Positions 1 to 64,000 of a stretch of DNA of 64,000 nt are shown here, one piece after another. Each line of letters starts with the position of its first letter. The stretch's first letter is position 1. A program made the translations under genes and the position numbers. The DNA is from a virus. Under the pieces are notes generated by a model that saw only the letters and a program-made list of their open reading frames with translations, had not been told where the DNA came from and did not search any database. The stretch lies in the IMG/VR virus record IMGVR_UViG_3300028845_000030, one strand, 5' to 3'.

Positions 1-3000
1 TAAGAGATAGATCATCTGATGATGTAAGTTTATATTTATTAAACAGATTCTCTTTAATTTCAGATGTTCTAACAGCATAATCAGCATCTGATTTAATAGC
101 TGTTTTAGTTCTCTCTTTAGCTTCTGTATATTCTTTAACTATAGGTTGATTAACTAATAACATAGCATCATATAAGTCAACACCTAATGATACTAATTGT
201 AGCACTGGTCCTAATGATGTTAATGATAGGTTTAAATCTCCTGCTATAGGATCTTTAGCATTATCAGTCATAGCAGATAGAATAGTTGATAGAGTATCTT
301 GTATCCTTACTTTAACTTCTTTTCCTTGTTTCTTACTTTCAAATTTATCAAGTATTTCATGAGTACTAAAATCAAATAGAGGTTTTTCACCATTAAATAC
401 AGGTCTGAAGGTATCAGCTTTTAAATGCACTTTAGCTTTAGCTAGAAATGCTCTAATTAAGTTAGTATTAGCAGCTGGACCAACATTCTCTTTACCTGTA
501 GAGTTAGATTTCCAGGCAGTAAATTGACCTATTGGACTATTTAAATTAGCTTGTTTAGATATATCAATATCTTTTAATACTTGTATTTTATCTCTAACAT
601 CAGAAAGTCTTTTTACTGTAGCTGGAGTTTGAGGAATACCCTTTTCTACCATTGATTTATTAGTAAGAAAAGCAATATTAGCATCCACTAATTGATTATT
701 AATAGTGGCATTAGATAGAGTGATGGTCCCTCCTTTTGTCTCTTTTTTAAACTCTTCAAGAGTGGAAGGTAATTGTAATTCAATAAGAGCTTCTTGTTCT
801 GGAACTCCTAGTTTAATTAGTTTAATAAAGTCTTTATTGTTCTGTTTTTGATCTTGTATAAACTCTTCAAATTTACCTTCTAAAGTGGTAGCTGTACCAA
901 ATGGTACAAACTTATCACCTTTCATGTAAAAGTCTTTTCTTTCAACAAATATACTGTCTATATCAAAGTCAGCACCTGATAATTCAATCACTTCTTTAGG
1001 GAATATACCAACAGACCCATATTCACTTGGAAGAAACTCTACCACTTTAAAAGCAATCATAGAATGCTTATCTTGTGTAGGTATCCTTTGACCAAACATT
1101 TCCAGCACTTGTTTAGCATTTAATATATCTCCAGGTTTAAGATTGTGTAGTTCTCTGGTAAATGCTGGCATTGCTACCTCAGATAGTCCACTTGGATTGT
1201 ATTTTAATGGTCTATATTCACCTGTTTTTTCATCTTTAACATTAAATCCATAATCAGATATTAATGTAAGCTTCAATCCAGCTGTCTTTTGATTTAATAC
1301 ACCTTTAGTAAAGTGAGCTAAGAATAATTGCTCATATTTATTAAGAGTGTTAGGAAGATTTAAATTATACATTGGATCAAGTCCAAAGAATTGCAATAAA
1401 GAATCATCTGCACCTGATTGTTCAAGTGTATCTAATAGTTTCTTTCTAAATTTAGTTTCTTCTTTCTCTGTTAAATTACCATCTACTAGTTTACCCAAGA
1501 ACTTCTTAGCTTGATCTACAGAATTAGTTCTGGCTTGTGATAGAAGATTTTGATATATATGTCTTAATTCTTTTAAACTTATATCTTCCCCTTGAAAATT
1601 AACAATAGTATTATCATCTTGCTCACTATCAATAAGTTGTATTAATTGTGTTCCATAGACAATTTCTGTCTTACCAGATGGTGTATCTACTTGTCTTCCT
1701 GAGTATTTATTCTCAATAAGTCTAGTATTTGTATGATTAAAGTCATATCTACCATCTGGTCCTAATTCAGCTGGTTTATATGTTAATAATTTACTGGCAC
1801 TTTCTGGAAGTATTCTGGCTGGTACAATTTGGTCTATTTGTTCAATAGACATTTGTTGATGCCATTGAAAATCAGGATTTTGAGCCATTGTAGCTCTTCT
1901 TGATAGATTTTCTAGTTGTACTCTGAAGTTGTGTAATAATTCTTTCCCTGGTTTAGCTACCCATTCTCCTTTATCATTTTTAACTGATGTTAATTTCTTA
2001 GTGAGAATAAGATCAGACATTTTATGATAGTCTACAGGACCTGATGTAACAGTTTTAATGCTGTTTAACATCACCTGTTTATCCTTCAATGTGAGTATTT
2101 CATCCCATGTAAGTTCTTCACCATCATCAATTTTATTAAGAATAGAGAATATCTCAGGACTAAGTTTACCTTCTCTCTGTAGAATGAACTTAAAATGGTT
2201 CATATCTATCATAGCTTGAGCATCAGCTACATCAATATCTTTTGTAAGTCCTTTAGCTTTAGGTTCTTTATAAAATCCTACAATATGATTTCCTTTACCA
2301 AAAGACACCTTTGCTGATATAGCTCTCTTAGCTCTTTTAACATTATCAACAGCATCTTTAGAGAATGCTGGATTCATTTCTATAAGATCATTATAAGCAT
2401 TAATGTTTATAAGACTATTTACATAGAAATTACCTATATCATCTTTAGTTGATACATTTTTTGGTAGTAGATTCTGAGAAGTTATACCAAGATCTTCTAA
2501 TAATTGATTTTCTTGTTTAATTTCATTAAGTAGATTAGCTTCTATTTCTGTTTTAATAGCTTCTTCCATGTCATGAAAATCAGCTTTAGAAACATAATTT
2601 TTAGCTTTTGATAGAATTTGTTCTCCTAATTTGGTGTTTTCCAGATATTTGAAATAGAATAGATGTAATCCTCTTAATTTACCAATATGATAGTCTTTAA
2701 TTTTAACTACATCAGGATTATTAATTTCTCTCTCTGTAATAGTTATTCTTTCTACTTCTTGTAGAAATTGATCATATAATAGATTAATAGCTCTATCTGT
2801 TGGTCTACCATTAGAATACAGTTTTTCAACAGGAAGTTTTATAGAATAAGCTGAAGCACTGGCTTCCAACACTTTAGGATAGAATTTAGCAAATGTAACA
2901 TCACCTATTTTCTTTTGAGCAGAAAATAAGCCATATTGCATAAGTTTAAATGATCTATCATCTATACCTTTAAATGTAGTGCCTTCTTGACCTTTTTTAT

Positions 3001-6000: not shown

Positions 6001-8941
6001 CAGATAGAATAGGCTTAATTGCATCATCTTTAATTGTATCAAATTTACCTTTCTTAGCAAATACTGTAATACCATATTTTTCATTTAGATCTTTAGCTGA
6101 TAATGTTGTTTCTCCTTGTGCATTATAAATAGATTGATACACCTTATTAAGTGCATCTAGTTTATGTTGATTATTAATAAGATCAGTTATTTCTTCATCT
6201 GTAAGATCTCTGACAGCTTTATCTTCTCTTATTTTAAATAGTGTTTTAGCCTGTGTCCTGTTATTGTCAGTAAATCTGAATGTAGATGTATTACCTTTTT
6301 CATCTACTGTAACATATTGATCAGAATGTCTACCATGAAAGGCATCTATCCATGTTCCATCAGGAGTTTGTAATTCATAAACAACATCAAGAGCTTTATT
6401 AGGACTTAATGTTGCTTTTACACTGCTTGGGAATTTACTTAATAGATGATTTAGTCCTCTTTGGATGTTACCCTCTACAGATACCTTTTTAGTCAGCCTG
6501 ACTCTTGTAATAGGTGTTATATCAGAAACAGTGTTTAATATTTCTTGTACAGCAGCTTTAGTTCCTACAGCATGTACTCCTGTTCCATCTTCAGATTCTC
6601 CTGTATATGGTTGTGTAAGATCAGTGTTATTTAATACTTCTGGTCCTGTAGATGGTAGAGTTTTAGGTACATAGAAATCTGTTATAGGATGTAATACATC
6701 ATCACCTTTAATTTTAACCAGTCCTTCTTCTACATCAAAATCTTCTACTTCTACAGATTGTCCTTGTCCTCTAAATTGTACTTGTGATCCTGGAGCAAAT
6801 TGTCCTTCTTTTGTTACTGCTGTTTCTGTTTCTTCTTCATCAGTTGGTTTTTCATCTTCAACATCAGCACTATTCTTCTTATCAAATTCTTCATTAGCTT
6901 TTCTTACTTCTTCATCACCTATAATATCATTAAATAATTTAGAATATTCTTTCTCTCTTTGATTAAGTTTTTCAAGATCATTAACAATAGCTATAATCTC
7001 TGGTTTTCTGATAGGATTAACTCTTTCAATAGCCTCTTTAAATCCTTCTGTTTCTGTGAATTTTTCATATTTCTTAGAACCAGGGAGATTTGTTAATATT
7101 TCATTATTAATTTTTACTAATAAATCAGATCCTTCTTTAACTGTCAGATTCATTAATTCCTGATGTAGTTTTTGTCTTCTATCTTTAGCATCATCCACTA
7201 CTACAGCAGCATGTATAAGTCTTTCTTTATTACCTTCAGAGAAATCTTTATATGTATTTTCAACAGTTTCATAAGCTTTAACTATAGATTCTGTTTTTTC
7301 TATTCTATCTTGTACTAATTGAGCTACAGAAGTTTTATTAGATTCCTCTGGTGTTACACCAAATGTTTCTTTAAATTCTTCTGGTTTCATATTTTTTATA
7401 CTCTCTAAGTCTTCTTTAAGACTCTCATATTGTCCAGTTTTAATTCTAGATAGAGTATATGATGTTATAAGATCATTTTGAGCATTGTTAAATTCAAATT
7501 TATCACCTTTAGCAGCTGCTTCTGACATTTCACCAGAAATAGCTTTAGCTCTATTATCTGATTGTATAAGTTGTTTATATACTTCTTTAGGATTGTGCTT
7601 GTTAAGTATTTCTAAAGCATTAGCTATCTGAGGATCATCTGATTTAAATGCTTCTCTTAGAGCAGATTTCTTCATAGCTCCACCAGAGATTAATGTAGAT
7701 AATGCACCTACAACAAATGATTCCCATCCTTTTTCTGTACCATAAGCTTCTTTAAGTCCTATAATAGCAGATTCAAGAATATTAGTGTCTTGTTTATTAA
7801 ATTTCTTTGTATAGAAGTCTTGAGATGCTGTAGATGTAGCACCTTGCAGTTGTTCTTGTGTTCCTTCTTCTACTGGTTGAGCACCAACTTTAGCTATTTT
7901 AGTAAGTCTTTCTTCTAATGGAGATATATCTACTTTGGAGAAATCTCCTAAAGCAGCTTTTCTTTCTAACTTTTTACCAATTTCATCACCTAATTCTCCT
8001 ACAGCCTTTCTTTCAGCTTTAAGATTAGTCATAACCTTACCAAATTGTAAGAAATTTGATCCAGCTATAATTGGAAGATTAACTATGAATATAGTGTTTT
8101 CTAATTGATCTTTTTTAGTTTTAAGATCAAGTATCACTTCTTCTGGAACTTCTTGTCCTAATTGTTCATATTTAGATTTAACTTCAGCTAATGTTTTATC
8201 ATACCACTGTTTACCACCCATTCTACCTTCATCACCAGCCTCACCAATGGAAGCTGTTGTAGCTGTTGTTAAAGCTTCTCCAGCTTGAGCTATTTTACCT
8301 GTAGTTCCTAATGATTTAGCTATACTTCTATATACAAGACCTGATGCAGCACCAGTGCCTACAGCTCCTAATGTATATCCTGCTCCTGATAGAACATCTC
8401 CCCACCAAAAATTGGCTTTACCCATCTTTTGATACCAAGGCATCTGTTCATATTCCTTAGTATTATATAATGGAACACCACCAGATATAGCTTCATTAGC
8501 TTTATCCATTGATTGTGTTACATAGTTATCATATAATTTAGAGAATTGTCCATTAGACAGAGCTGATCCTATTCCATAAATAGTACCTGCTGTACCATTT
8601 ATAAATGATGTTAAAGCTTTACCTGATGCTTGAACTACACCATTAGCTATTTTATCAGATATTGGTTGTTTCTCTGCTCTATAATAAGGAAGATCTCCAC
8701 TTTTAACAATATCAATATCCATTCTGGCATCATCAAATTTTGATTTACCAAAATCAGTGGGTTTTCCAGAAACATCAATACCTGCATAACTTTCTAAGTT
8801 TACAGGTATTTGAGGTTTAGCTTCTCCAACATTAGCATCTAAGAATTTATTAAAAGCTTTTTCTGATGGTTTATACTTAGCTAATGATTCTTGTTCTTCT
8901 ATTGTTAGGGGTGATAAATTTGAATTTTCTTTTTTAGCCAT
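1..8941 (-). CDS. Giant virion protein with a complete N-terminus; the C-terminus is cut by the window edge (at least 2980 aa). Read as a crAss-like virion-packaged RNA polymerase (phi14:2 gp66-like) preceded by a very long N-terminal region carrying a zincin HExxH motif
   Basis: The ATG at 8941..8939 overlaps the upstream stop (TAATG). Manual minus-strand translation stays open down to position 1. The ORF is missing from the track because it has no stop inside the window. SGADFDIDS is present (DFDID at 956..970, aa 2658-2662), resembling the NADFDGD/DxDxD catalytic motif of two-barrel RNAPs. HEVFH lies at 4850..4864 (aa 1360-1364). Both motifs are in frame with the ATG. Confidence 0.75.
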   Translation of the reverse strand, partial: MAKKENSNLSPLTIEEQESLAKYKPSEKAFNKFLDANVGEAKPQIPVNLESYAGIDVSGKPTDFGKSKFDDARMDIDIVKSGDLPYYRAEKQPISDKIANGVVQASGKALTSFINGTAGTIYGIGSALSNGQFSKLYDNYVTQSMDKANEAISGGVPLYNTKEYEQMPWYQKMGKANFWWGDVLSGAGYTLGAVGTGAASGLVYRSIAKSLGTTGKIAQAGEALTTATTASIGEAGDEGRMGGKQWYDKTLAEVKSKYEQLGQEVPEEVILDLKTKKDQLENTIFIVNLPIIAGSNFLQFGKVMTNLKAERKAVGELGDEIGKKLERKAALGDFSKVDISPLEERLTKIAKVGAQPVEEGTQEQLQGATSTASQDFYTKKFNKQDTNILESAIIGLKEAYGTEKGWESFVVGALSTLISGGAMKKSALREAFKSDDPQIANALEILNKHNPKEVYKQLIQSDNRAKAISGEMSEAAAKGDKFEFNNAQNDLITSYTLSRIKTGQYESLKEDLESIKNMKPEEFKETFGVTPEESNKTSVAQLVQDRIEKTESIVKAYETVENTYKDFSEGNKERLIHAAVVVDDAKDRRQKLHQELMNLTVKEGSDLLVKINNEILTNLPGSKKYEKFTETEGFKEAIERVNPIRKPEIIAIVNDLEKLNQREKEYSKLFNDIIGDEEVRKANEEFDKKNSADVEDEKPTDEEETETAVTKEGQFAPGSQVQFRGQGQSVEVEDFDVEEGLVKIKGDDVLHPITDFYVPKTLPSTGPEVLNNTDLTQPYTGESEDGTGVHAVGTKAAVQEILNTVSDITPITRVRLTKKVSVEGNIQRGLNHLLSKFPSSVKATLSPNKALDVVYELQTPDGTWIDAFHGRHSDQYVTVDEKGNTSTFRFTDNNRTQAKTLFKIREDKAVRDLTDEEITDLINNQHKLDALNKVYQSIYNAQGETTLSAKDLNEKYGITVFAKKGKFDTIKDDAIKPILSEISKANIDGEFYIFDKLNGSTWEELQLLGNPNNKDKAKNFLKSIKNPNNFIGATNSRYLALGREANGELFLFGADTQIFTDSEFKSIIADILEKKTISEKEQKQINDKFSSLIHIISPAGERLELKLDISKEGKPSKLQMVITRDETKTYLDIPLSNKTSINSVVKHVTDQGLKYIHPESFRRSIPKTENTDKIPTKELAGMFLSNVSKNVFKYSKIIVDLNIPSEDIFGKILPAETKVAPTTITPKSQSISANTIKDQIAALEDKIANSSSEEEADSYFIEIEALEKQLLEGRKLESDIDRLRGETPINKISQQSAQTFIDFPEAEANVRKLISPASVVNFDDINTLITNIENKGETWGFFAGKSIYLNKAAQKGTEFHEVFHYVFRRLISDEQIRRLHMLARVKYGTPTIKQLSELKNQSNANKSLRKDQLEELWLEEKMADTFMNYKLGKNKLENMGLIGKILSKIQDFLTWLVGHKTELQALFENINKGSFRSDITHYNQFTKKWANPVFKQIPNGEKDTETGKRYTYTGLEEGRQIIRTIAAKVISAKMGASKARMDVDILLDAAISKAYQFNSLENNKDIIASKSPIEGLKIKRWLRSQQFVYSNPTSVALIKEQVKKQLDVFNFDKVDLDEEITATENERKLIDFDKNAINIGGFDSLNKEIRAYIGTTLYDTTDALGRPVKTAVDPQVVYQSIMKTLASTDTGNMMNKFRIFAENNPQTKAVYDRLTSETGYDETIGVAKLNPQLLQQFLNAFTTEKIKYLQILPNLETQTYKVFDANNAGKAQVDQWEKNFSETKDLTKSKIALQDAGSDLATGNIDKIEPIKKALASIGVDVSDTYIRYSLLAISDPFNPLIANFKDVKPLTRDDLSALAGVIAKDNSPYEKGTKGAITRLQNIAQANYVFDEQVVSPNFQDANGETRYSYIKPSLMLERTRELRQALSTPEGRKAFIEQLNTSYSHSYAFNDNNYLLTHKNADEIFSNLQLEFTGDIRQDKKGQEGTTFKGIDDRSFKLMQYGLFSAQKKIGDVTFAKFYPKVLEASASAYSIKLPVEKLYSNGRPTDRAINLLYDQFLQEVERITITEREINNPDVVKIKDYHIGKLRGLHLFYFKYLENTKLGEQILSKAKNYVSKADFHDMEEAIKTEIEANLLNEIKQENQLLEDLGITSQNLLPKNVSTKDDIGNFYVNSLININAYNDLIEMNPAFSKDAVDNVKRAKRAISAKVSFGKGNHIVGFYKEPKAKGLTKDIDVADAQAMIDMNHFKFILQREGKLSPEIFSILNKIDDGEELTWDEILTLKDKQVMLNSIKTVTSGPVDYHKMSDLILTKKLTSVKNDKGEWVAKPGKELLHNFRVQLENLSRRATMAQNPDFQWHQQMSIEQIDQIVPARILPESASKLLTYKPAELGPDGRYDFNHTNTRLIENKYSGRQVDTPSGKTEIVYGTQLIQLIDSEQDDNTIVNFQGEDISLKELRHIYQNLLSQARTNSVDQAKKFLGKLVDGNLTEKEETKFRKKLLDTLEQSGADDSLLQFFGLDPMYNLNLPNTLNKYEQLFLAHFTKGVLNQKTAGLKLTLISDYGFNVKDEKTGEYRPLKYNPSGLSEVAMPAFTRELHNLKPGDILNAKQVLEMFGQRIPTQDKHSMIAFKVVEFLPSEYGSVGIFPKEVIELSGADFDIDSIFVERKDFYMKGDKFVPFGTATTLEGKFEEFIQDQKQNNKDFIKLIKLGVPEQEALIELQLPSTLEEFKKETKGGTITLSNATINNQLVDANIAFLTNKSMVEKGIPQTPATVKRLSDVRDKIQVLKDIDISKQANLNSPIGQFTAWKSNSTGKENVGPAANTNLIRAFLAKAKVHLKADTFRPVFNGEKPLFDFSTHEILDKFESKKQGKEVKVRIQDTLSTILSAMTDNAKDPIAGDLNLSLTSLGPVLQLVSLGVDLYDAMLLVNQPIVKEYTEAKERTKTAIKSDADYAVRTSEIKENLFNKYKLTSSDDLSL

Positions 8942-59395: not shown

Positions 59396-59670
59396 AAAAA
59401 TCAAAAAAGGATCAAAAGAAAATAGTTGCTTTTTATATTAAAAAGTATGAAGAATATTATAAAATGAATTCAAATGATCTGGTTTTATTACAAGATCAGA
59501 AGATGTCTTCAACTCAAAAATTAGCTCTTAGAGATGCTATTAATCAGAAGATGAAAGAAGAAATAATGAATCAGAGGATGAAGAATATGGAAGAGAAAGA
59601 AGCTGTAGAAGAAAAGCCAATAATTGATTTAAATAAAGTAATGGATGGAGAATCAACAAATAAAGAATAA
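59392..59670 (+). CDS. Hypothetical K/E-rich protein
   Basis: 92-aa ORF with ATGA overlap to the upstream gene. Confidence 0.55.
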   Translation: MKKSKKDQKKIVAFYIKKYEEYYKMNSNDLVLLQDQKMSSTQKLALRDAINQKMKEEIMNQRMKNMEEKEAVEEKPIIDLNKVMDGESTNKE

Positions 59671-61543
59671 TCATGTTGAGGTATATGATATTGAAACTTT
59701 ATCTAATTTATTTAGTTATGTTGGATTAAATGTTGATACACAACAGGAAGTAACATTTGTTATACATAAGGATAGGAATGATTATAGAGCTTTAATTAAA
59801 CATTTAGAGACACTTAAAGGTATGGTTGGATATAATAATCTTAGATTTGATTATCCTATTATACATTATATTATACAAGCTCAAAAAATGTGGGGTGATG
59901 ATGGTGGTGTAATAGCTGCGTTAATATATCAAAAAGCTCAAGAGATTATTGATACTCCTGAAGAAGATGAATTTAGCACACAAATACCTGAATGGCATCA
60001 TATTATACCACAATTAGACTTATATGCTTTGAATCATTTTGATAATCCAGCTAAAAGGACTTCATTAAAAGATCTTGAGTTCTGGATGAATTACCCTAAT
60101 GTACAGGATATGCCTATAAGCCACAAGGAAGCTATTACAACCACTCAAATACCAATGGTGCTGGAATATAACCTTAATGATGTAAAGGCCACCTATGCCT
60201 TCTATAAGCTTTGTAAAGATAGAATACAATTAAGGAAAGATATTGGTAAACAATATGGCTTAAAAATGACTAATTATAATGATCCTAGGATAGGAAGTGA
60301 GATATTTCTTGATCTTTTGTCTAAAGATATGAAAATAGATAAAAAGGATCTTAGAAAAAAGAGAACTTTTAGGAAATCTATTAAATTAGGTGAAATAATT
60401 CTTCCTGGTATTAAGTTTAATTCTCCCAAATTCCAATCATTATTAGGTAATATTAAGAATACAGAGGTGGTGGGTACTAAAGGTGAGTTTAAACAATCTG
60501 TAGTATATAAAGGATTTAAGTATGATCTTGGTCAAGGTGGTGCTCATGGATGTATAAAATCTGGTGTATATTGTGCTGATGATGAGTATATTATAACAGA
60601 TATTGATGTCTCTAGCTACTATCCAAATTTAGCTATTAATAATGGTTTTAAACCAGCTCATTTAGGTGATTCTTTCTGTAGAATATATAAATCTATATAT
60701 GAAACAAGAGCTAAAGCTAAGAAAGAGGGTAATAAAGCTCTTAATGAGGGATTAAAACTCTCTTTAAATGGTACATTTGGTAAAGCTGGTGATAAAAATA
60801 GTTATTTGTATGATCAACAATTCTTATTATCAATCACTATTAATGGACAATTACTTCTTCTGATGTTAATAGAGAAAATAGTAGATAGTATAGAAAATGT
60901 ACAGGTGTTACAGATTAATACAGATGGTATAACAATTAAGTATAAGAAGGAAAATAAAGAAACAGTAGGACAAATATGTGATAGTTGGATGAAAATGACC
61001 AAATTAGAATTAGAATTTAAAGATTATTCTAAAATGGTTATTCAAGACGTAAATAACTACCAAGCAATTGATACAAAAGGAAATATTAAATCTAAGGGTC
61101 TTTTTGAAATAACTAAAGAATTTCATAAGGATACAAGCTTTAAAATAGTTCCAATTGCTATAACAGAATATTTTGTTAAAAGAACTCCTATTATGGAAAC
61201 TCTTATTAATCATAAGAATATATATGATTTCTGTGGGAGAGCTAAGTTTAAAAAGGATAGTTTTGGTGAAACCAGATATATAGGAAATAGTAATGGTCTT
61301 CCTGTTGAAATGAGAGAAAGACAACAGAAAACTACCAGGTATTATATATCTAAGAAAGGGTCTACATTTATAAAGGTGTATCCTGAGAAGAAGAAAGAAT
61401 CATTTATTAATAAAGGATTTCAAGTGACAATATTTAATAAATTTGTTGCTAAGGATAATTATGATGTTAATTATGATTTTTATTATAAAGAATGTTTGAA
61501 GGTGCTGCAATCTGTGGAAGATAAACAATTACAATTATTATAG
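59645..61543 (+). CDS. DNA polymerase with an N-terminal 3'-5' exonuclease domain (family B-like motifs)
   Basis: Exonuclease motifs are Exo I YDIET, Exo II GYNNLRFDYPII and Exo III YNLNDVKATY. Polymerase motifs are DIDVSSYYPNLA (DxxSLYPS-like), KLSLNGTFGK (KxxxNSxYG-like) and QINTDGI (DTD-like). Confidence 0.75.
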   Translation: MENQQIKNNHVEVYDIETLSNLFSYVGLNVDTQQEVTFVIHKDRNDYRALIKHLETLKGMVGYNNLRFDYPIIHYIIQAQKMWGDDGGVIAALIYQKAQEIIDTPEEDEFSTQIPEWHHIIPQLDLYALNHFDNPAKRTSLKDLEFWMNYPNVQDMPISHKEAITTTQIPMVLEYNLNDVKATYAFYKLCKDRIQLRKDIGKQYGLKMTNYNDPRIGSEIFLDLLSKDMKIDKKDLRKKRTFRKSIKLGEIILPGIKFNSPKFQSLLGNIKNTEVVGTKGEFKQSVVYKGFKYDLGQGGAHGCIKSGVYCADDEYIITDIDVSSYYPNLAINNGFKPAHLGDSFCRIYKSIYETRAKAKKEGNKALNEGLKLSLNGTFGKAGDKNSYLYDQQFLLSITINGQLLLLMLIEKIVDSIENVQVLQINTDGITIKYKKENKETVGQICDSWMKMTKLELEFKDYSKMVIQDVNNYQAIDTKGNIKSKGLFEITKEFHKDTSFKIVPIAITEYFVKRTPIMETLINHKNIYDFCGRAKFKKDSFGETRYIGNSNGLPVEMRERQQKTTRYYISKKGSTFIKVYPEKKKESFINKGFQVTIFNKFVAKDNYDVNYDFYYKECLKVLQSVEDKQLQLL

Positions 61544-61590: not shown

Positions 61591-61863
61591 ATGTCCAAAG
61601 AAGGAAAGCTTAAAATTAAGAAGTCAAATGATTCTGTTATTGCCACTTTATATACAACAGATATAGTGAAAGCAGGTAATAATAGAATTGTTACATTAAA
61701 TTCAGGTGGTTGGAAAACATCTACTACTAAAAAGTCAATTAATAGAGTGTTAGATATGCTTCAAATACCAATACATGTATTCACACATGAAAAAGAGTGG
61801 AAAATAATTAACAAAGATGGAATAACTCTATCTTTTGAAGACAATAAAGAATATGCTTATTAA
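61591..61863 (+). CDS. Hypothetical protein
   Basis: 90-aa ORF downstream of the polymerase gene. Confidence 0.6.
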   Translation: MSKEGKLKIKKSNDSVIATLYTTDIVKAGNNRIVTLNSGGWKTSTTKKSINRVLDMLQIPIHVFTHEKEWKIINKDGITLSFEDNKEYAY

Positions 61864-61923: not shown

Positions 61924-62331
61924 ATGAGAACAGTAAAAGTTAGTACATCAGGTGCAGATGGTTTAATAGAAGTAGAAACAGCAGCTACAACATGGGCAGA
62001 GCTTAAATCTGATATGGAAGATGCTGGAATATCAACAGATGGTATGAAAGGTGTAGTTAGAGAAACAAAGGTGAGCCTTGAAGCAAATGATGCTCAGATT
62101 CCAGAAGGTAATTTTACAGTGATGTTATTTACAGGTAAAATTAAATCTGGAGCTTTTGATCATGCTCAAATGATGAGAGATCTTAGAGATTCTATAGAAA
62201 ATGCTTATAATGAAGTGATTGAGAATATTGATTGTGGTGCATATGGTGAAGATGAACCTGAGAGATCAAATTCAACATCTTCTTTGGAAGCTGAAAGAAG
62301 GAAGCTTGAGAGAGAGCTTTCTGGACAATAA
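61924..62331 (+). CDS. Hypothetical protein; N-terminal roughly 78 aa look beta-grasp / ubiquitin-like (tentative)
   Basis: Alternating strand/helix pattern RTVKVS, GLIEVE, TTWAELKSDMEDAGI, GVVRE, VSLE, FTVMLFTGKIKSGA, followed by an acidic helical tail. Confidence 0.35.
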   Translation: MRTVKVSTSGADGLIEVETAATTWAELKSDMEDAGISTDGMKGVVRETKVSLEANDAQIPEGNFTVMLFTGKIKSGAFDHAQMMRDLRDSIENAYNEVIENIDCGAYGEDEPERSNSTSSLEAERRKLERELSGQ

Positions 62332-62392
62332 ATTGAAAATTAACAACATGGGTGTTATAGAAATATAATACCCATGTTTTATTATATAAAAT

Positions 62393-63640
62393 ATGGAAGA
62401 AATTGTGGATTTACATAAAGTGAAGTTTACATCTTCAAATCAGTTTTTAGTTGGTGAAAAGGTTAGAGTGACAGGACATACAAATTCAGCTATTGCTAAT
62501 TATTCAAATATAATTAATAATGTGGGAATTGTACATAGTAATCCTGATAGTAGTATATTAAATGGTTATTTTGCTAGAGAAAAAGAAGTATATATTTGTA
62601 TAAATACAAGTTCTTATAGAGTTGATGTAGCTGATCTTGATCTTGCTATAGAAGATGAAAAACTATATAATGAAATCAAGAGTGTTAGACTAGCTCAATC
62701 TGAATTATATTTAAAATATAGAGAAGTAGAAATTGAGCTGTTAAAGAAGAAATTATATAATGATAATAAAGATATATTAGAGATATTCGAGGAAGTATAT
62801 CCAAATCAATTTGATTATAATTTTGACAATGGTAAATTAAATTGTCTTATATATTTTCCAGAAATAACTATTACTAACTCTGAAAGAATGAGTCATAAAA
62901 TAGTTGATCTTTATATAAAAATAAGTTTTAGATCAAATAAAACTATTAATGATTTTAAAGGAACAAGAGCCACAGTGACATTAGCAGAAAGAACAGTAAA
63001 TTACAAACATTCTCATATGAGTAGTTCTGATAGTTTTTGGACTTGGTTATCTTGTTGTTTAGGAGAAAGTGAATTTGCTCAAACTTATAGTCTTCTTTGC
63101 AATCAATTTAATAAGGATAATTTAACAAGATTTTTATATCAACTTCCAGAATATTTATCATGGGAATCTCTAGAAGGTGGTCCATATATAAGAATGTCCA
63201 ATATTAATGCTAATTATAATTTTCCTGGTTCAGTAAATCAGGTTTTAATTGATAGTACATATAAAAAACTATTGGCTCAAATTAATAATATTCCTGTAAA
63301 AATAAATAAAGAGTTAATTGATGTATTTCAAATAGAGGCTAATGAGCAGTTAGAACAATTAATTCTTCCTGTAGCTGGAAATGCTATTTGTAATAAAATA
63401 GGAAATAATTATGTATTAAGTGGAACACAAAATAATAATCAATTAAATAATTATAATAGAGAAGTAGCTAATATTACAATGTTTAAGTTTAAAGGAAAGG
63501 ATATTAAACCACAGGTAATACCATCTACAGATGATAATAAAAATGCTGTAAAAGCTCCCTATCCAAGTCTTACACAAGGAATAGCTAAATTATTGACTAA
63601 ACAGATTAATGAATATATAATATCAGAAACAAATGTCTAA
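62393..63640 (+). CDS. Hypothetical 415-aa protein with an E2/UBC-like HxH...CCLG segment (tentative)
   Basis: VNYKHSHMSSSDSFWTWLSCCLGESEF (63008..63061) resembles the HPN...G.ICL active-site region of E2-fold proteins. The rest of the protein is unassigned. Confidence 0.3.
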   Translation: MEEIVDLHKVKFTSSNQFLVGEKVRVTGHTNSAIANYSNIINNVGIVHSNPDSSILNGYFAREKEVYICINTSSYRVDVADLDLAIEDEKLYNEIKSVRLAQSELYLKYREVEIELLKKKLYNDNKDILEIFEEVYPNQFDYNFDNGKLNCLIYFPEITITNSERMSHKIVDLYIKISFRSNKTINDFKGTRATVTLAERTVNYKHSHMSSSDSFWTWLSCCLGESEFAQTYSLLCNQFNKDNLTRFLYQLPEYLSWESLEGGPYIRMSNINANYNFPGSVNQVLIDSTYKKLLAQINNIPVKINKELIDVFQIEANEQLEQLILPVAGNAICNKIGNNYVLSGTQNNNQLNNYNREVANITMFKFKGKDIKPQVIPSTDDNKNAVKAPYPSLTQGIAKLLTKQINEYIISETNV

Positions 63641-64000
63641 ATTAACAGAATTAACATTATCAAATAAGCCTAAATTGATTATTTCTAAAGAATTACAATC
63701 AGAAATAATGTGTTTACATGCAAGAATTGGTGATGTAGAGTGGAGTGGTCCTGTATTTTATAAGATAATGGAGGGAAATATTAATGATCCAGATAAGCTT
63801 GTTATTAAAGCTTTACATGTATTTCCATGTGATGTTGGAACAGGAACTTATACAGAATACACATTAGATGAGAAGGTGATTGATTTTTATGATGTACATC
63901 CAGAATGTGATCCTACTGTAACTAAGAAGATTAAATGGGCACACTGCCATTCACATCACAACATGGAGTGTTTTTTCTCAGGAACAGATATGGCAGAACT
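63633..64000 (+). CDS. JAB/MPN (JAMM) metallopeptidase-domain protein, cut by the window edge
   Basis: Not in the ORF track because it has no stop in the window. The ATG at 63633 overlaps the previous stop (ATGTCTAA). Contains an upstream VEWSG (E..G) and HSHHNMECFFSGTD, which fits HxHx7SxxD, at 63948..63989. Confidence 0.65.
   Translation, partial: MSKLTELTLSNKPKLIISKELQSEIMCLHARIGDVEWSGPVFYKIMEGNINDPDKLVIKALHVFPCDVGTGTYTEYTLDEKVIDFYDVHPECDPTVTKKIKWAHCHSHHNMECFFSGTDMAE

Follow-up and report, generated by a model that had tools for sequence, protein, structure and literature searches.

A phage gene cassette with a ubiquitin-like protein, a JAMM protease and an E1-like enzyme that probably operates a non-canonical conjugation pathway

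Do phages encode pathways of their own for tagging proteins with ubiquitin-like modifiers? This question is raised by three consecutive genes at the end of a 64,000-nucleotide (nt) stretch of viral DNA, IMG/VR record IMGVR_UViG_3300028845_000030, which in its full length is referred to here as the window. The genes are located on the plus strand, as are all cassette features given below, and encode P1 (135 amino acids (aa); 61924..62331), P2 (415 aa; 62393..63640) and P3 (starting with the ATG at 63633 and running off the window end at 64000 after 122 codons). A preliminary description of this DNA had interpreted them as genes for a ubiquitin-like protein (Ubl), an E2-like conjugating enzyme and a JAB peptidase, respectively, and had placed a missing activating enzyme (E1) beyond the window edge. 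Listing of the open reading frames (ORFs) and direct reading of the sequence confirmed the three ORFs as well as the positions of the motifs noted in them. As detailed below, the genes belong to a four-gene cassette, Ubl-P2-JAMM-E1, which most likely processes, activates and conjugates the Ubl and would employ a non-canonical transfer enzyme for this purpose.

The interpretation of P1 as a Ubl is borne out by structure prediction. In an AlphaFold2 model built on an alignment of 78 sequences, residues 1–76 (61924..62151) adopt a ubiquitin-like beta-grasp fold of the topology beta-beta-alpha-beta-beta-beta (strands 2–7, 14–19, 41–45, 50–52 and 64–70; helix 24–33), which ends in K-I-K-S75-G76. 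Comparison of the model with the PDB by Foldseek retrieved human ISG15 (E 4.9e-4), ubiquitin and variants thereof, SUMO, NEDD8/Rub1 and the ubiquitin of Bacteroides fragilis (BfUbb) as top matches, with a probability of 1.00, TM-scores of ~0.65–0.72 (normalized to target length) and root-mean-square deviations of 2.1–2.7 Å over ~75 columns. The top 50 matches consisted throughout of ubiquitin-type modifiers or DIX/BAG-type ubiquitin-like domains, and no ThiS or MoaD structure was among them. Similarly, a search of P1 against Pfam yielded no ThiS/MoaD match.

Conservation was assessed in 142 viral loci, that is 62 IMG/VR loci seeded with P2 (pattern of the W257–Y265 peptide) and the best 80 of at least 489 loci seeded with E1, which were scanned with hidden Markov models of the four proteins; residue counts are over ~115–125 unique homologues. 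For P1, whose homologues form 418 clusters in a profile search, 112 unique homologous ORFs from these loci were aligned. The window protein reads ...FTGKIKSG76-A77 at the end of its Ubl domain, and Gly76 (codon 62149..62151) represents the only fully conserved column of the Ubl alignment, being kept in 112/112 homologues and usually embedded in the context [VTI]-K-S-G. Up to this Gly, the domain mostly comprises 75–76 residues, which equals the length of ubiquitin, and the residue that follows is not conserved (A, S, V, G, I, K and others). In the model, residues 73–77, which surround this predicted processing and activation site, are flexible and of low confidence. As judged from the alignment, the pattern is the one expected for a modifier that acts via a free C-terminal Gly.

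Downstream of Gly76, P1 carries a variable, acidic and partly helical tail (residues 77–135; 62152..62331), in which helices 80–100 and 118–133 are modelled with lower confidence. Across homologues, the tail varies from one to more than 200 residues and exceeds 40 residues in 90 of the 112 sequences. The initial impression that the tail is dispensable holds up: in 20 of the 112 homologues the ORF ends 1–5 residues past the conserved Gly, and P2 is the very next gene in 18 of these 20 cases. In the loci L011 and L012, an HNH/NUMOD homing-endonuclease gene (6001..7193 and 573..1765, respectively) lies two codons past the conserved Gly, leaving a 91-aa Ubl ORF (...RSGKF) and a separate tail ORF; this insert is too small to hold an intron core, and Rfam gave none. 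The separately encoded tail, taken together with the short forms, implies that Ubl and tail need not be covalently joined, and removal of the tail, or a separate function for it after cleavage, is predicted. Ubl forms of 91–92 aa ending two residues past S-G were also considered as natural precursors, an idea that was rejected because at least the type seen in L011 and L012 results from the HNH insertion. In L017, a 114-kb viral contig, a tandem pair of Ubl genes is present 5' of P2 (4832..5838).

The long tails could alternatively mean that P1 is not activated at all. In this scenario, the beta-grasp would be a cleavable or structural N-terminal domain, comparable to lambda TAPI or to fusions of ubiquitin with ribosomal proteins, and the substrate of the E1-like enzyme would be a different one, for instance the C-terminus of a peptide, as in the case of MccB and PaaA. 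In fact, MccB is the top PDB match of the E1 profile (E 4e-11). However, the 20 tail-less homologues still keep the Gly, this residue is the sole fully invariant one in the Ubl, and the strict linkage of Ubl, E1 and JAB genes would be hard to explain otherwise. We therefore regard the scenario as very improbable.

The complete sequence of P3 was obtained from L003, a 78.8-kb metagenomic contig that was recovered by exact-protein look-up of P2 and matches the window with 100% identity across the 11,608 nt that the two have in common. The window covers the N-terminal 122 aa (63633..64000) of a 397-aa JAMM/MPN+ protein, whose gene extends to the window-equivalent position 64826. P3 reads E36-W-S-G ... 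H106-S-H108-H-x6-S116-G-T-D119, which corresponds to the canonical motif E...HxHx7SxxD (E36, 63738..63740; H106-x-H108, 63948..63956; S116-x-x-D119, 63978..63989; H106 to D119 spanning 63948..63989). This motif is complete and near-invariant, with E36 present in 115/115, H106 and H108 in 113/114 and S116 and D119 in 114/114 homologues, which upholds the JAB call of the preliminary description. Matches at the profile level are weak and below threshold (Pfam Prok-JAB: 14 bits, E 0.047 for P3; 20.4 bits, E 4.9e-4 for gp77 of phage crAss001), with the deneddylase CSN5 as best PDB profile match (E 0.02, over the HSH...SGxD block), so that the membership of P3 in the JAMM family rests on the motif.

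The E1 expected beyond the window edge is indeed encoded on L003. There, P3 is followed by a 48-aa ORF whose start overlaps the P3 stop, the gene of a 265-aa LAGLIDADG endonuclease (Pfam LAGLIDADG_3, 55 bits), a 194-aa ThiF ORF and the gene of a 315-aa protein, P5. The 194-aa ORF scores 37.4 bits with Pfam ThiF at a cut-off of 28.1 bits, its match beginning at profile position 46; for comparison, crAss001 gp76 reaches 58.3 bits. The 48-aa ORF ends in ...VFVGGAGGIG-RKSVKN, that is, the E1 gene is broken directly after the GxGGIG loop. When the two ORFs are joined as exons between GGIG and SWLS, the nucleotide-binding loop GxGGIGS is restored and a single-domain E1 of ~235 aa is obtained, which aligns without gaps to six uninterrupted homologues. 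The insert itself, which is located just past the window end, measures 1,087 nt and contains the LAGLIDADG gene (L003 12539..13625, window-equivalent 64931..66017). Judged by its sequence, it has the appearance of a group I intron that harbours a homing endonuclease gene: U is the last nucleotide of the upstream exon and G that of the insert, and a focused Rfam search of 271 nt returned a full-length match to Intron_gpI in the 3' 220 nt of the insert (19.9 bits, E 0.0043; gathering threshold 50 bits). An Rfam search over 4.5 kb reported no group I intron.

Insertions are also found elsewhere in the cassette. In the loci L009, L010, L015, L017, L044, L047, L052, L060, L076 and L144, inserts of 0.4–1.15 kb split the JAB gene right after the HxH of the JAMM motif, with LAGLIDADG genes lying on the opposite strand in L009 and L010; in L044 and L052 the E1 gene is split as well, at its NL-x-GQ motif. 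Introns and homing endonucleases have repeatedly invaded the Ubl, JAB and E1 genes at their catalytic motifs, which suggests that these sites are strongly conserved and important to the phage.

The joined E1 shows a set of invariant residues. Residues G37 and G39 of the G-loop, K83 and D121, which is the Mg-binding Asp of the DN motif, are present in 115/115 homologues; D62, N68, Q72, R126 and R149 are invariant, too. In the segment following the DGR strand, 112/112 homologues have a Cys, C183, and the order of motifs suggests that it is equivalent to the catalytic Cys in the crossover loop of MoeB and ThiF. Close to the N-terminus, R20 is kept in 114/115 homologues. MoeB dimers supply an N-terminal Arg in trans, and by analogy Arg20 may act as an in-trans arginine finger. 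In crAss001 gp76 (residues 1–160; L001 7188..7670) and its DAC15 equivalent, E1 carries an extra N-terminal extension of 110–160 residues, which is absent from the window phage and gave no family match.

In NCBIfam, E1 matches the thiF_fam2 and ThiS-adenylyltransferase models with 60 bits, which is below the equivalog cut-offs, and the PRTRC ThiF. Among the PADLOC models, Cap2 E1-E2 (E 2.7e-9) and BilD (13.3 bits, E 0.006; 21 bits for crAss001 gp76) are matched, and the PDB profile matches include, besides MccB, also UBA5, PaaA, TcdA, ThiF, the E1 enzymes of SUMO and NEDD8, and Cap2 (~2e-7). By these profile comparisons, the enzyme falls clearly within the E1-like superfamily and outside its characterised subfamilies.

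The ThiS adenylyltransferase models, being the best NCBIfam matches of E1 despite their sub-cut-off scores, would also be compatible with P1 serving as a sulfur carrier of the ThiS/MoaD/CysO type. Adenylation of Gly76 would then lead to a thiocarboxylate, whose sulfur P2 would use in the synthesis of a thio-modified nucleotide, base or cofactor within the replication module, and the JAB protein would be responsible for maturation of the carrier, in the way Mec+ acts on CysO. The location of the cassette amid replication and nucleotide-metabolism genes speaks for this possibility, and bacterial clusters of JAB, ThiS/MoaD-like and E1 genes have been tied to sulfur assimilation (PMC1779556). However, the closest structural relatives of P1 are ubiquitin-type or DIX/BAG-type rather than ThiS or MoaD, rhodanese, cysteine desulfurase and PP-loop ATPase are absent from the Pfam matches of the surrounding genes, and P2 has no match to known sulfurtransferases in Pfam or by Foldseek. 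With a Ubl of the ubiquitin type and no sulfur-donor or acceptor family nearby, a role as sulfur carrier becomes less likely, and we consider it improbable.

How common is this gene arrangement? The module had been expected to be unusual; it appears indeed to be undescribed, but it is widespread among viral contigs. In IMG/VR, at least 489 stretches of viral contig sequence were matched by E1. The order Ubl-P2-JAB-E1 on one strand is found in essentially all P2-seeded loci with sufficient flank, a few of them lacking a detectable Ubl, and in 75 of the 80 E1-seeded loci, the other five being without upstream sequence or without a detectable Ubl. By tblastn, the block was also detected in the Bacteroides phages crAss001 and DAC15, in cr111_1 and in the Flavobacterium phage FpV4 group. 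In crAss001 it corresponds to gp79-gp78-gp77-gp76-gp75, of which GenBank names only gp77 ('metalloprotease') and gp76 ('ThiF'). All-against-all BLAST revealed no domain shuffling among the cassette proteins.

The remaining member of the cassette is P2, which belongs to PHROG 15310 (function unknown) and to a family comprising 3,308 clusters at 50% identity. Its interpretation as an E2 had relied on the segment K205-H-S207-H208-M ... C221-C222-L-G-E (H206 to L223, 63008..63061), including a CC motif. Conservation supports this motif in part: H208 (123/123) and C222 (122/122) are invariant, whereas H206 and C221 are variable, leaving just C222 of the CC pair. H208 and C222 are 14 residues apart, no HPN motif is present, and the segment S207-H208 ... 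C222 (63011..63058) contains the His and Cys that are candidates for the active site. Conservation within the family is highest in W257-E-S-L-E-G-G-P-Y265 (63161..63187), in which E258 is kept in 122/123 and S259, G262 and P264 in 123/123 homologues; N162, R192, Y204, S207 and G224 complete the set of near-invariant residues. In the AlphaFold2 model (mean pLDDT 80; 85–96 in the core), an SH3/KOW/Tudor-like N-terminal barrel (residues ~23–84; 62459..62647) is followed by a long helix (89–135) and four long antiparallel strands (140–196), then by the S207-H208 loop, a short strand ending with C222, two helices, the invariant W-E258-S259-L-E-G262-G-P264-Y loop and a C-terminal alpha/beta domain (283–414). 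Many family members, ~300–330 aa in length, are without the barrel and the ~45-residue helix, the conserved unit being the core plus the C-terminal domain, and long homologues (~500–680 aa) have no informative fused Pfam domain. The order of elements in the model, i.e. helix, four-strand meander, His loop, Cys and two helices, resembles that of a UBC core.

Several results weigh against a conjugation pathway. Searches of P2 against Pfam gave no match to UQ_con or Prok-E2 (A–E), neither with the whole protein (E≤1) nor with ten core segments (E≤10). PADLOC returned no match for P2 at E≤1, the BilB and Cap2 E2 models included, although E1 was matched to Cap2 (E1-E2) and BilD in the same search. 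NCBIfam gave no match, PDB sequence profiles built from 29 and 148 sequences gave no E2, and hhalign comparison with UBE2D2, UBE2N, UBE2I and UBE2L3 gave a probability of 1.35%. Foldseek with the whole model retrieved nothing from the PDB at E<0.001 and no E2 within the top 50; the matches were exclusively SH3, KOW and PWWP domains aligning to the N-terminal domain, and in BFVD they were exclusively uncharacterised crAss-like proteins. Membership of P2 in the E2/UBC superfamily is consequently not supported, and with no detectable kinship to E2 enzymes at the levels of sequence, profile and fold, the transfer step is left without a recognised enzyme. The other cassette proteins contribute to this side of the balance as well. 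E1 is minimal, lacking IAD, CYS and UFD domains, whereas the Bil E1 has the architecture IAD-AAD-CYS; the match of the single ThiF-like domain of ~235 aa to BilD amounts to 13–21 bits. By sequence, E1 is equally near to ThiS adenylyltransferases and MccB as to the E1 enzymes of Ubls, and the Arg of the NLxRQ motif is replaced in its family (N68-x-x-G71-Q72, Gly in 111/115). The JAB scores of 14–20 bits stay below the Pfam cut-off of 25 bits, and in P3 neither a conserved Cys nor a family match was found for the C-terminal ~240 residues. Without such a Cys, this half of P3 was rejected as a candidate E2.

An E2-like role of P2 would hence be argued from analogy, that is from its position in the slot taken by the E2 gene in Bil operons and from the invariant Cys and His. 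Could the cassette work without an E2? In archaeal SAMP/UbaA/HvJAMM1 and in Thermus TtuB/TtuC, conjugation is E2-independent, and in a system of this kind Ubl, JAB and E1 would suffice, with C183 of E1 carrying out the transfer and P2 acting as a substrate adaptor, a thiol peptidase or transamidase, or the main target. A single-domain MoeB/ThiF-like E1 is the architecture of E2-less systems, and the phage E1 with its invariant crossover-loop Cys conforms to it. The negative outcome of all E2 tests for P2 points in the same direction, and there is precedent for Ubl, JAB and a Cys peptidase occurring together in phage tail-assembly clusters, where lambda gpK joins a JAB domain to NlpC/P60 beside a Ubl (PMC1779556). 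However, P2 is found at an unchanged position in essentially every locus, its gene overlaps the JAB gene, its invariant residues H208, C222, E258 and S259 look catalytic rather than adaptor-like, and a peptidase function finds no support in Foldseek, which gave no papain or NlpC/P60 match in the PDB. E2-independent conjugation is on balance rather unlikely in our view. The transfer step constitutes the main uncertainty, the question being whether P2 is a new Ubl carrier or ligase, or whether E1 conjugates alone as in archaeal sampylation and P2 has a different function.

The arrangement of the genes provides a further clue to how the cassette may work. It had been proposed that the three window genes are translationally coupled. 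This is true for P2 and P3, since the P2 stop and the P3 start overlap by 8 nt (ATGTCTAA), but not for P1 and P2, which are 61 nt apart. The spacer contains a terminator-like hairpin with a 15-bp stem and a T-rich tail (62345..62388 in all; −19.9 kcal/mol and z = −4.7 for 62345..62378). A strong hairpin followed by a T-run is present at the same position between P1 and P2 in 7/7 loci (window, crAss001, FpV4, DAC15, L008, L009 and L010), with z-scores from −3.7 to −5.4 (e.g. L001 4600..4672, L002 4740..4822 and L007 3788..3860). The hairpin sequences are unrelated between loci, i.e. the position is conserved and the sequence is not; window and L008 hairpins differ through paired stem changes. 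From P2 onwards the genes overlap (P2/JAB, JAB/E1 and E1/P5 in the window and L003), which together with the hairpin behind the Ubl gene suggests that the Ubl is made in excess over the enzymes.

The data show the folds and motifs of Ubl, JAB and E1, the invariance of their catalytic residues and the strict order of the genes. From these features we infer a pathway that includes cleavage at Gly76, thioester formation, transfer by P2 and the existence of protein targets, with conjugation as its probable outcome. P1 would be produced in excess and cleaved by P3 after Gly76, yielding a 76-residue Ubl with a free C-terminal Gly, much as BilC cleaves BilA after Gly97. The small ThiF-type E1, probably a homodimer with the N-terminal Arg provided in trans, would adenylate Gly76 and then load the Ubl onto the invariant Cys183 in its crossover loop. 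Subsequently, the Ubl would pass to Cys222 of P2, which would stand in functionally for an E2 or E2/E3 enzyme without being of the UBC type, or it would be transferred straight from E1 to lysines of phage or host targets. P3 may also reverse the modification. As to the purpose of such tagging, we can only speculate that it may serve counter-defence or the control of replication or assembly.

Which known systems resemble this pathway? The closest parallel is provided by the BilABCD operons of types I and II (Hör et al., bioRxiv 10.1101/2023.09.04.556158; Chambers et al., PMC10557695), which share the order Ubl, Cys/His protein, JAMM protease and E1, described as Ubl-E2-DUB-E1 for Bil (DUB, deubiquitinase; PMC10557695). 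In both cases, the Ubl is ubiquitin/ISG15-like and carries extra residues behind the Gly (BilA Gly97-Ala98; phage P1 Gly76-Ala77), and an E3 gene is absent. BilC, a JAMM protease, removes Ala98 and thereby exposes Gly97 of BilA, and the E2 of type II Bil was initially listed as an unknown 'CEHH' protein (PMC10557695). However, Bil operons reside in bacterial defence islands, whereas the cassette described here is found in virulent phages, and BilB superposes on Ubc12 and UBE2D2, whereas the phage P2 of ~400 aa combines SH3-like and C-terminal domains without a detectable UBC fold. The phage Ubl further differs in consisting of one beta-grasp domain plus a variable tail. With SAMP/UbaA/HvJAMM1 and TtuB/TtuC, where Ubl conjugation is combined with sulfur transfer, the cassette shares a JAMM protease for maturation or removal, a beta-grasp modifier with a terminal Gly and a small E1 of the MoeB/ThiF type that carries a catalytic Cys. 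These systems lack a P2-like protein, however, and their modifiers are ThiS/MoaD-like and double as sulfur carriers, whereas the phage Ubl is nearest to ubiquitin, ISG15 and SUMO.

E1-like adenylation and JAMM processing are likewise combined in the conflict systems type II CBASS (Cap2/Cap3) and Bub (6E/DUF6527; PMC11601596). In Bub, the chemistry is strongly diverged and involves oxyester intermediates, with BubCD being devoid of a catalytic Cys (PMC11601596). In contrast, phage E1 and P2 both keep an invariant Cys, and the phage cassette has neither an E1-E2 or JAB-E1 fusion nor a CD-NTase or DUF6527 protease. Finally, the TAPI and TAPK proteins of phages lambda and T1 comprise a phage Ubl with a conserved terminal Gly, a linker and a C-terminal domain, next to a JAB protein predicted to cut at this Gly (Iyer, Burroughs and Aravind 2006, PMC1779556). 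They form part of a tail module and lack an E1, whereas the present cassette is located in a replication module and has an E1 with a catalytic Cys. A relation to the PRTRC plasmid cassette was rejected, as only its ThiF component is matched (29–37 bits) next to a faint PRTRC_A match (E 0.075), and there is none for P1, P2 and P5.

The cassette lies amid genes of replication and nucleotide metabolism (DNA polymerase, primase, UDG and DnaB). P1 had been described as lying next to the DNA polymerase gene. This polymerase, which is family-B-type (59645..61543, plus strand; phrog_1252, E 1.6e-160) and belongs to a family spread broadly among phages, is present upstream, but a 90-aa gene intervenes (61591..61863, plus strand; phrog_554, with a weak match to Kyano_Gp96, PF23790, 25 bits). 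L008 shows this arrangement as well. The opposite strand of the window encodes terminase, portal and major head proteins (PHROG 6681, 6547 and 11589) in the order TerL-portal-MCP, which we take to be a typical crAss-like arrangement. It is plausible that the window phage is crAss-like; megablast of the region against phage records gave no match.

Downstream of E1, the gene for P5 (315 aa; window-equivalent 66596..67543) encodes a poorly conserved protein. P5 was considered as the missing E2 and rejected, its alignment showing very poor conservation and no invariant Cys or His. In three lineages, P5 terminates in an acidic tip (E-E-I-P-F, E-D-L-P-F and E-E-I-L-F; L002 7891..8979, L009 11208..12272 and L010 11467..12573, respectively). 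These tips resemble the C-terminal tips of bacterial SSB proteins, and by analogy P5 may be a replisome-interacting protein that stands outside of the Ubl chemistry.

A search of the literature, with subscription journals mostly outside coverage, found no report of Ubl, E1 or JAB modules in connection with crAss-like phages or Crassvirales. In the 2006 survey of ubiquitin-related systems of prokaryotes, the tail-assembly Ubl and JAB proteins of lambda and T1 are the only phage examples (PMC1779556), and the Bil preprint by Hör et al. (10.1101/2023.09.04.556158) does not mention phage-encoded homologues. The novel aspects of the cassette are its location on the virus side, the minimal E1 and the non-UBC protein in the E2 slot. 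A more far-reaching proposition, which we put forward as a tentative one, is that P2 is the first representative of a new class of E2/E3-like, Ubl-conjugating enzymes that are not of the UBC type and that virulent crAss-like and related Bacteroidota phages possess a complete, self-contained ubiquitination-like pathway for tagging host or phage proteins during infection.

Taken together, our data suggest that many gut and environmental phages run a ubiquitin-like tagging system of their own. So far, prokaryotic Ubl conjugation has been tied to anti-phage defence, as in Bil, CBASS Cap2/Cap3 and Bub, and to archaeal sampylation, and the same logic now emerges on the side of the virus. If P2 acts as proposed, the phage cassette would mirror Bil defence. 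The presence of the cassette in culturable phages (crAss001 gp79-gp76, DAC15 and the FpV4 group) makes this hypothesis testable at the bench. If conjugation is real, a transfer enzyme without a recognisable UBC fold would join the ubiquitin toolkit, and it would become a question what these abundant gut phages tag, and why.

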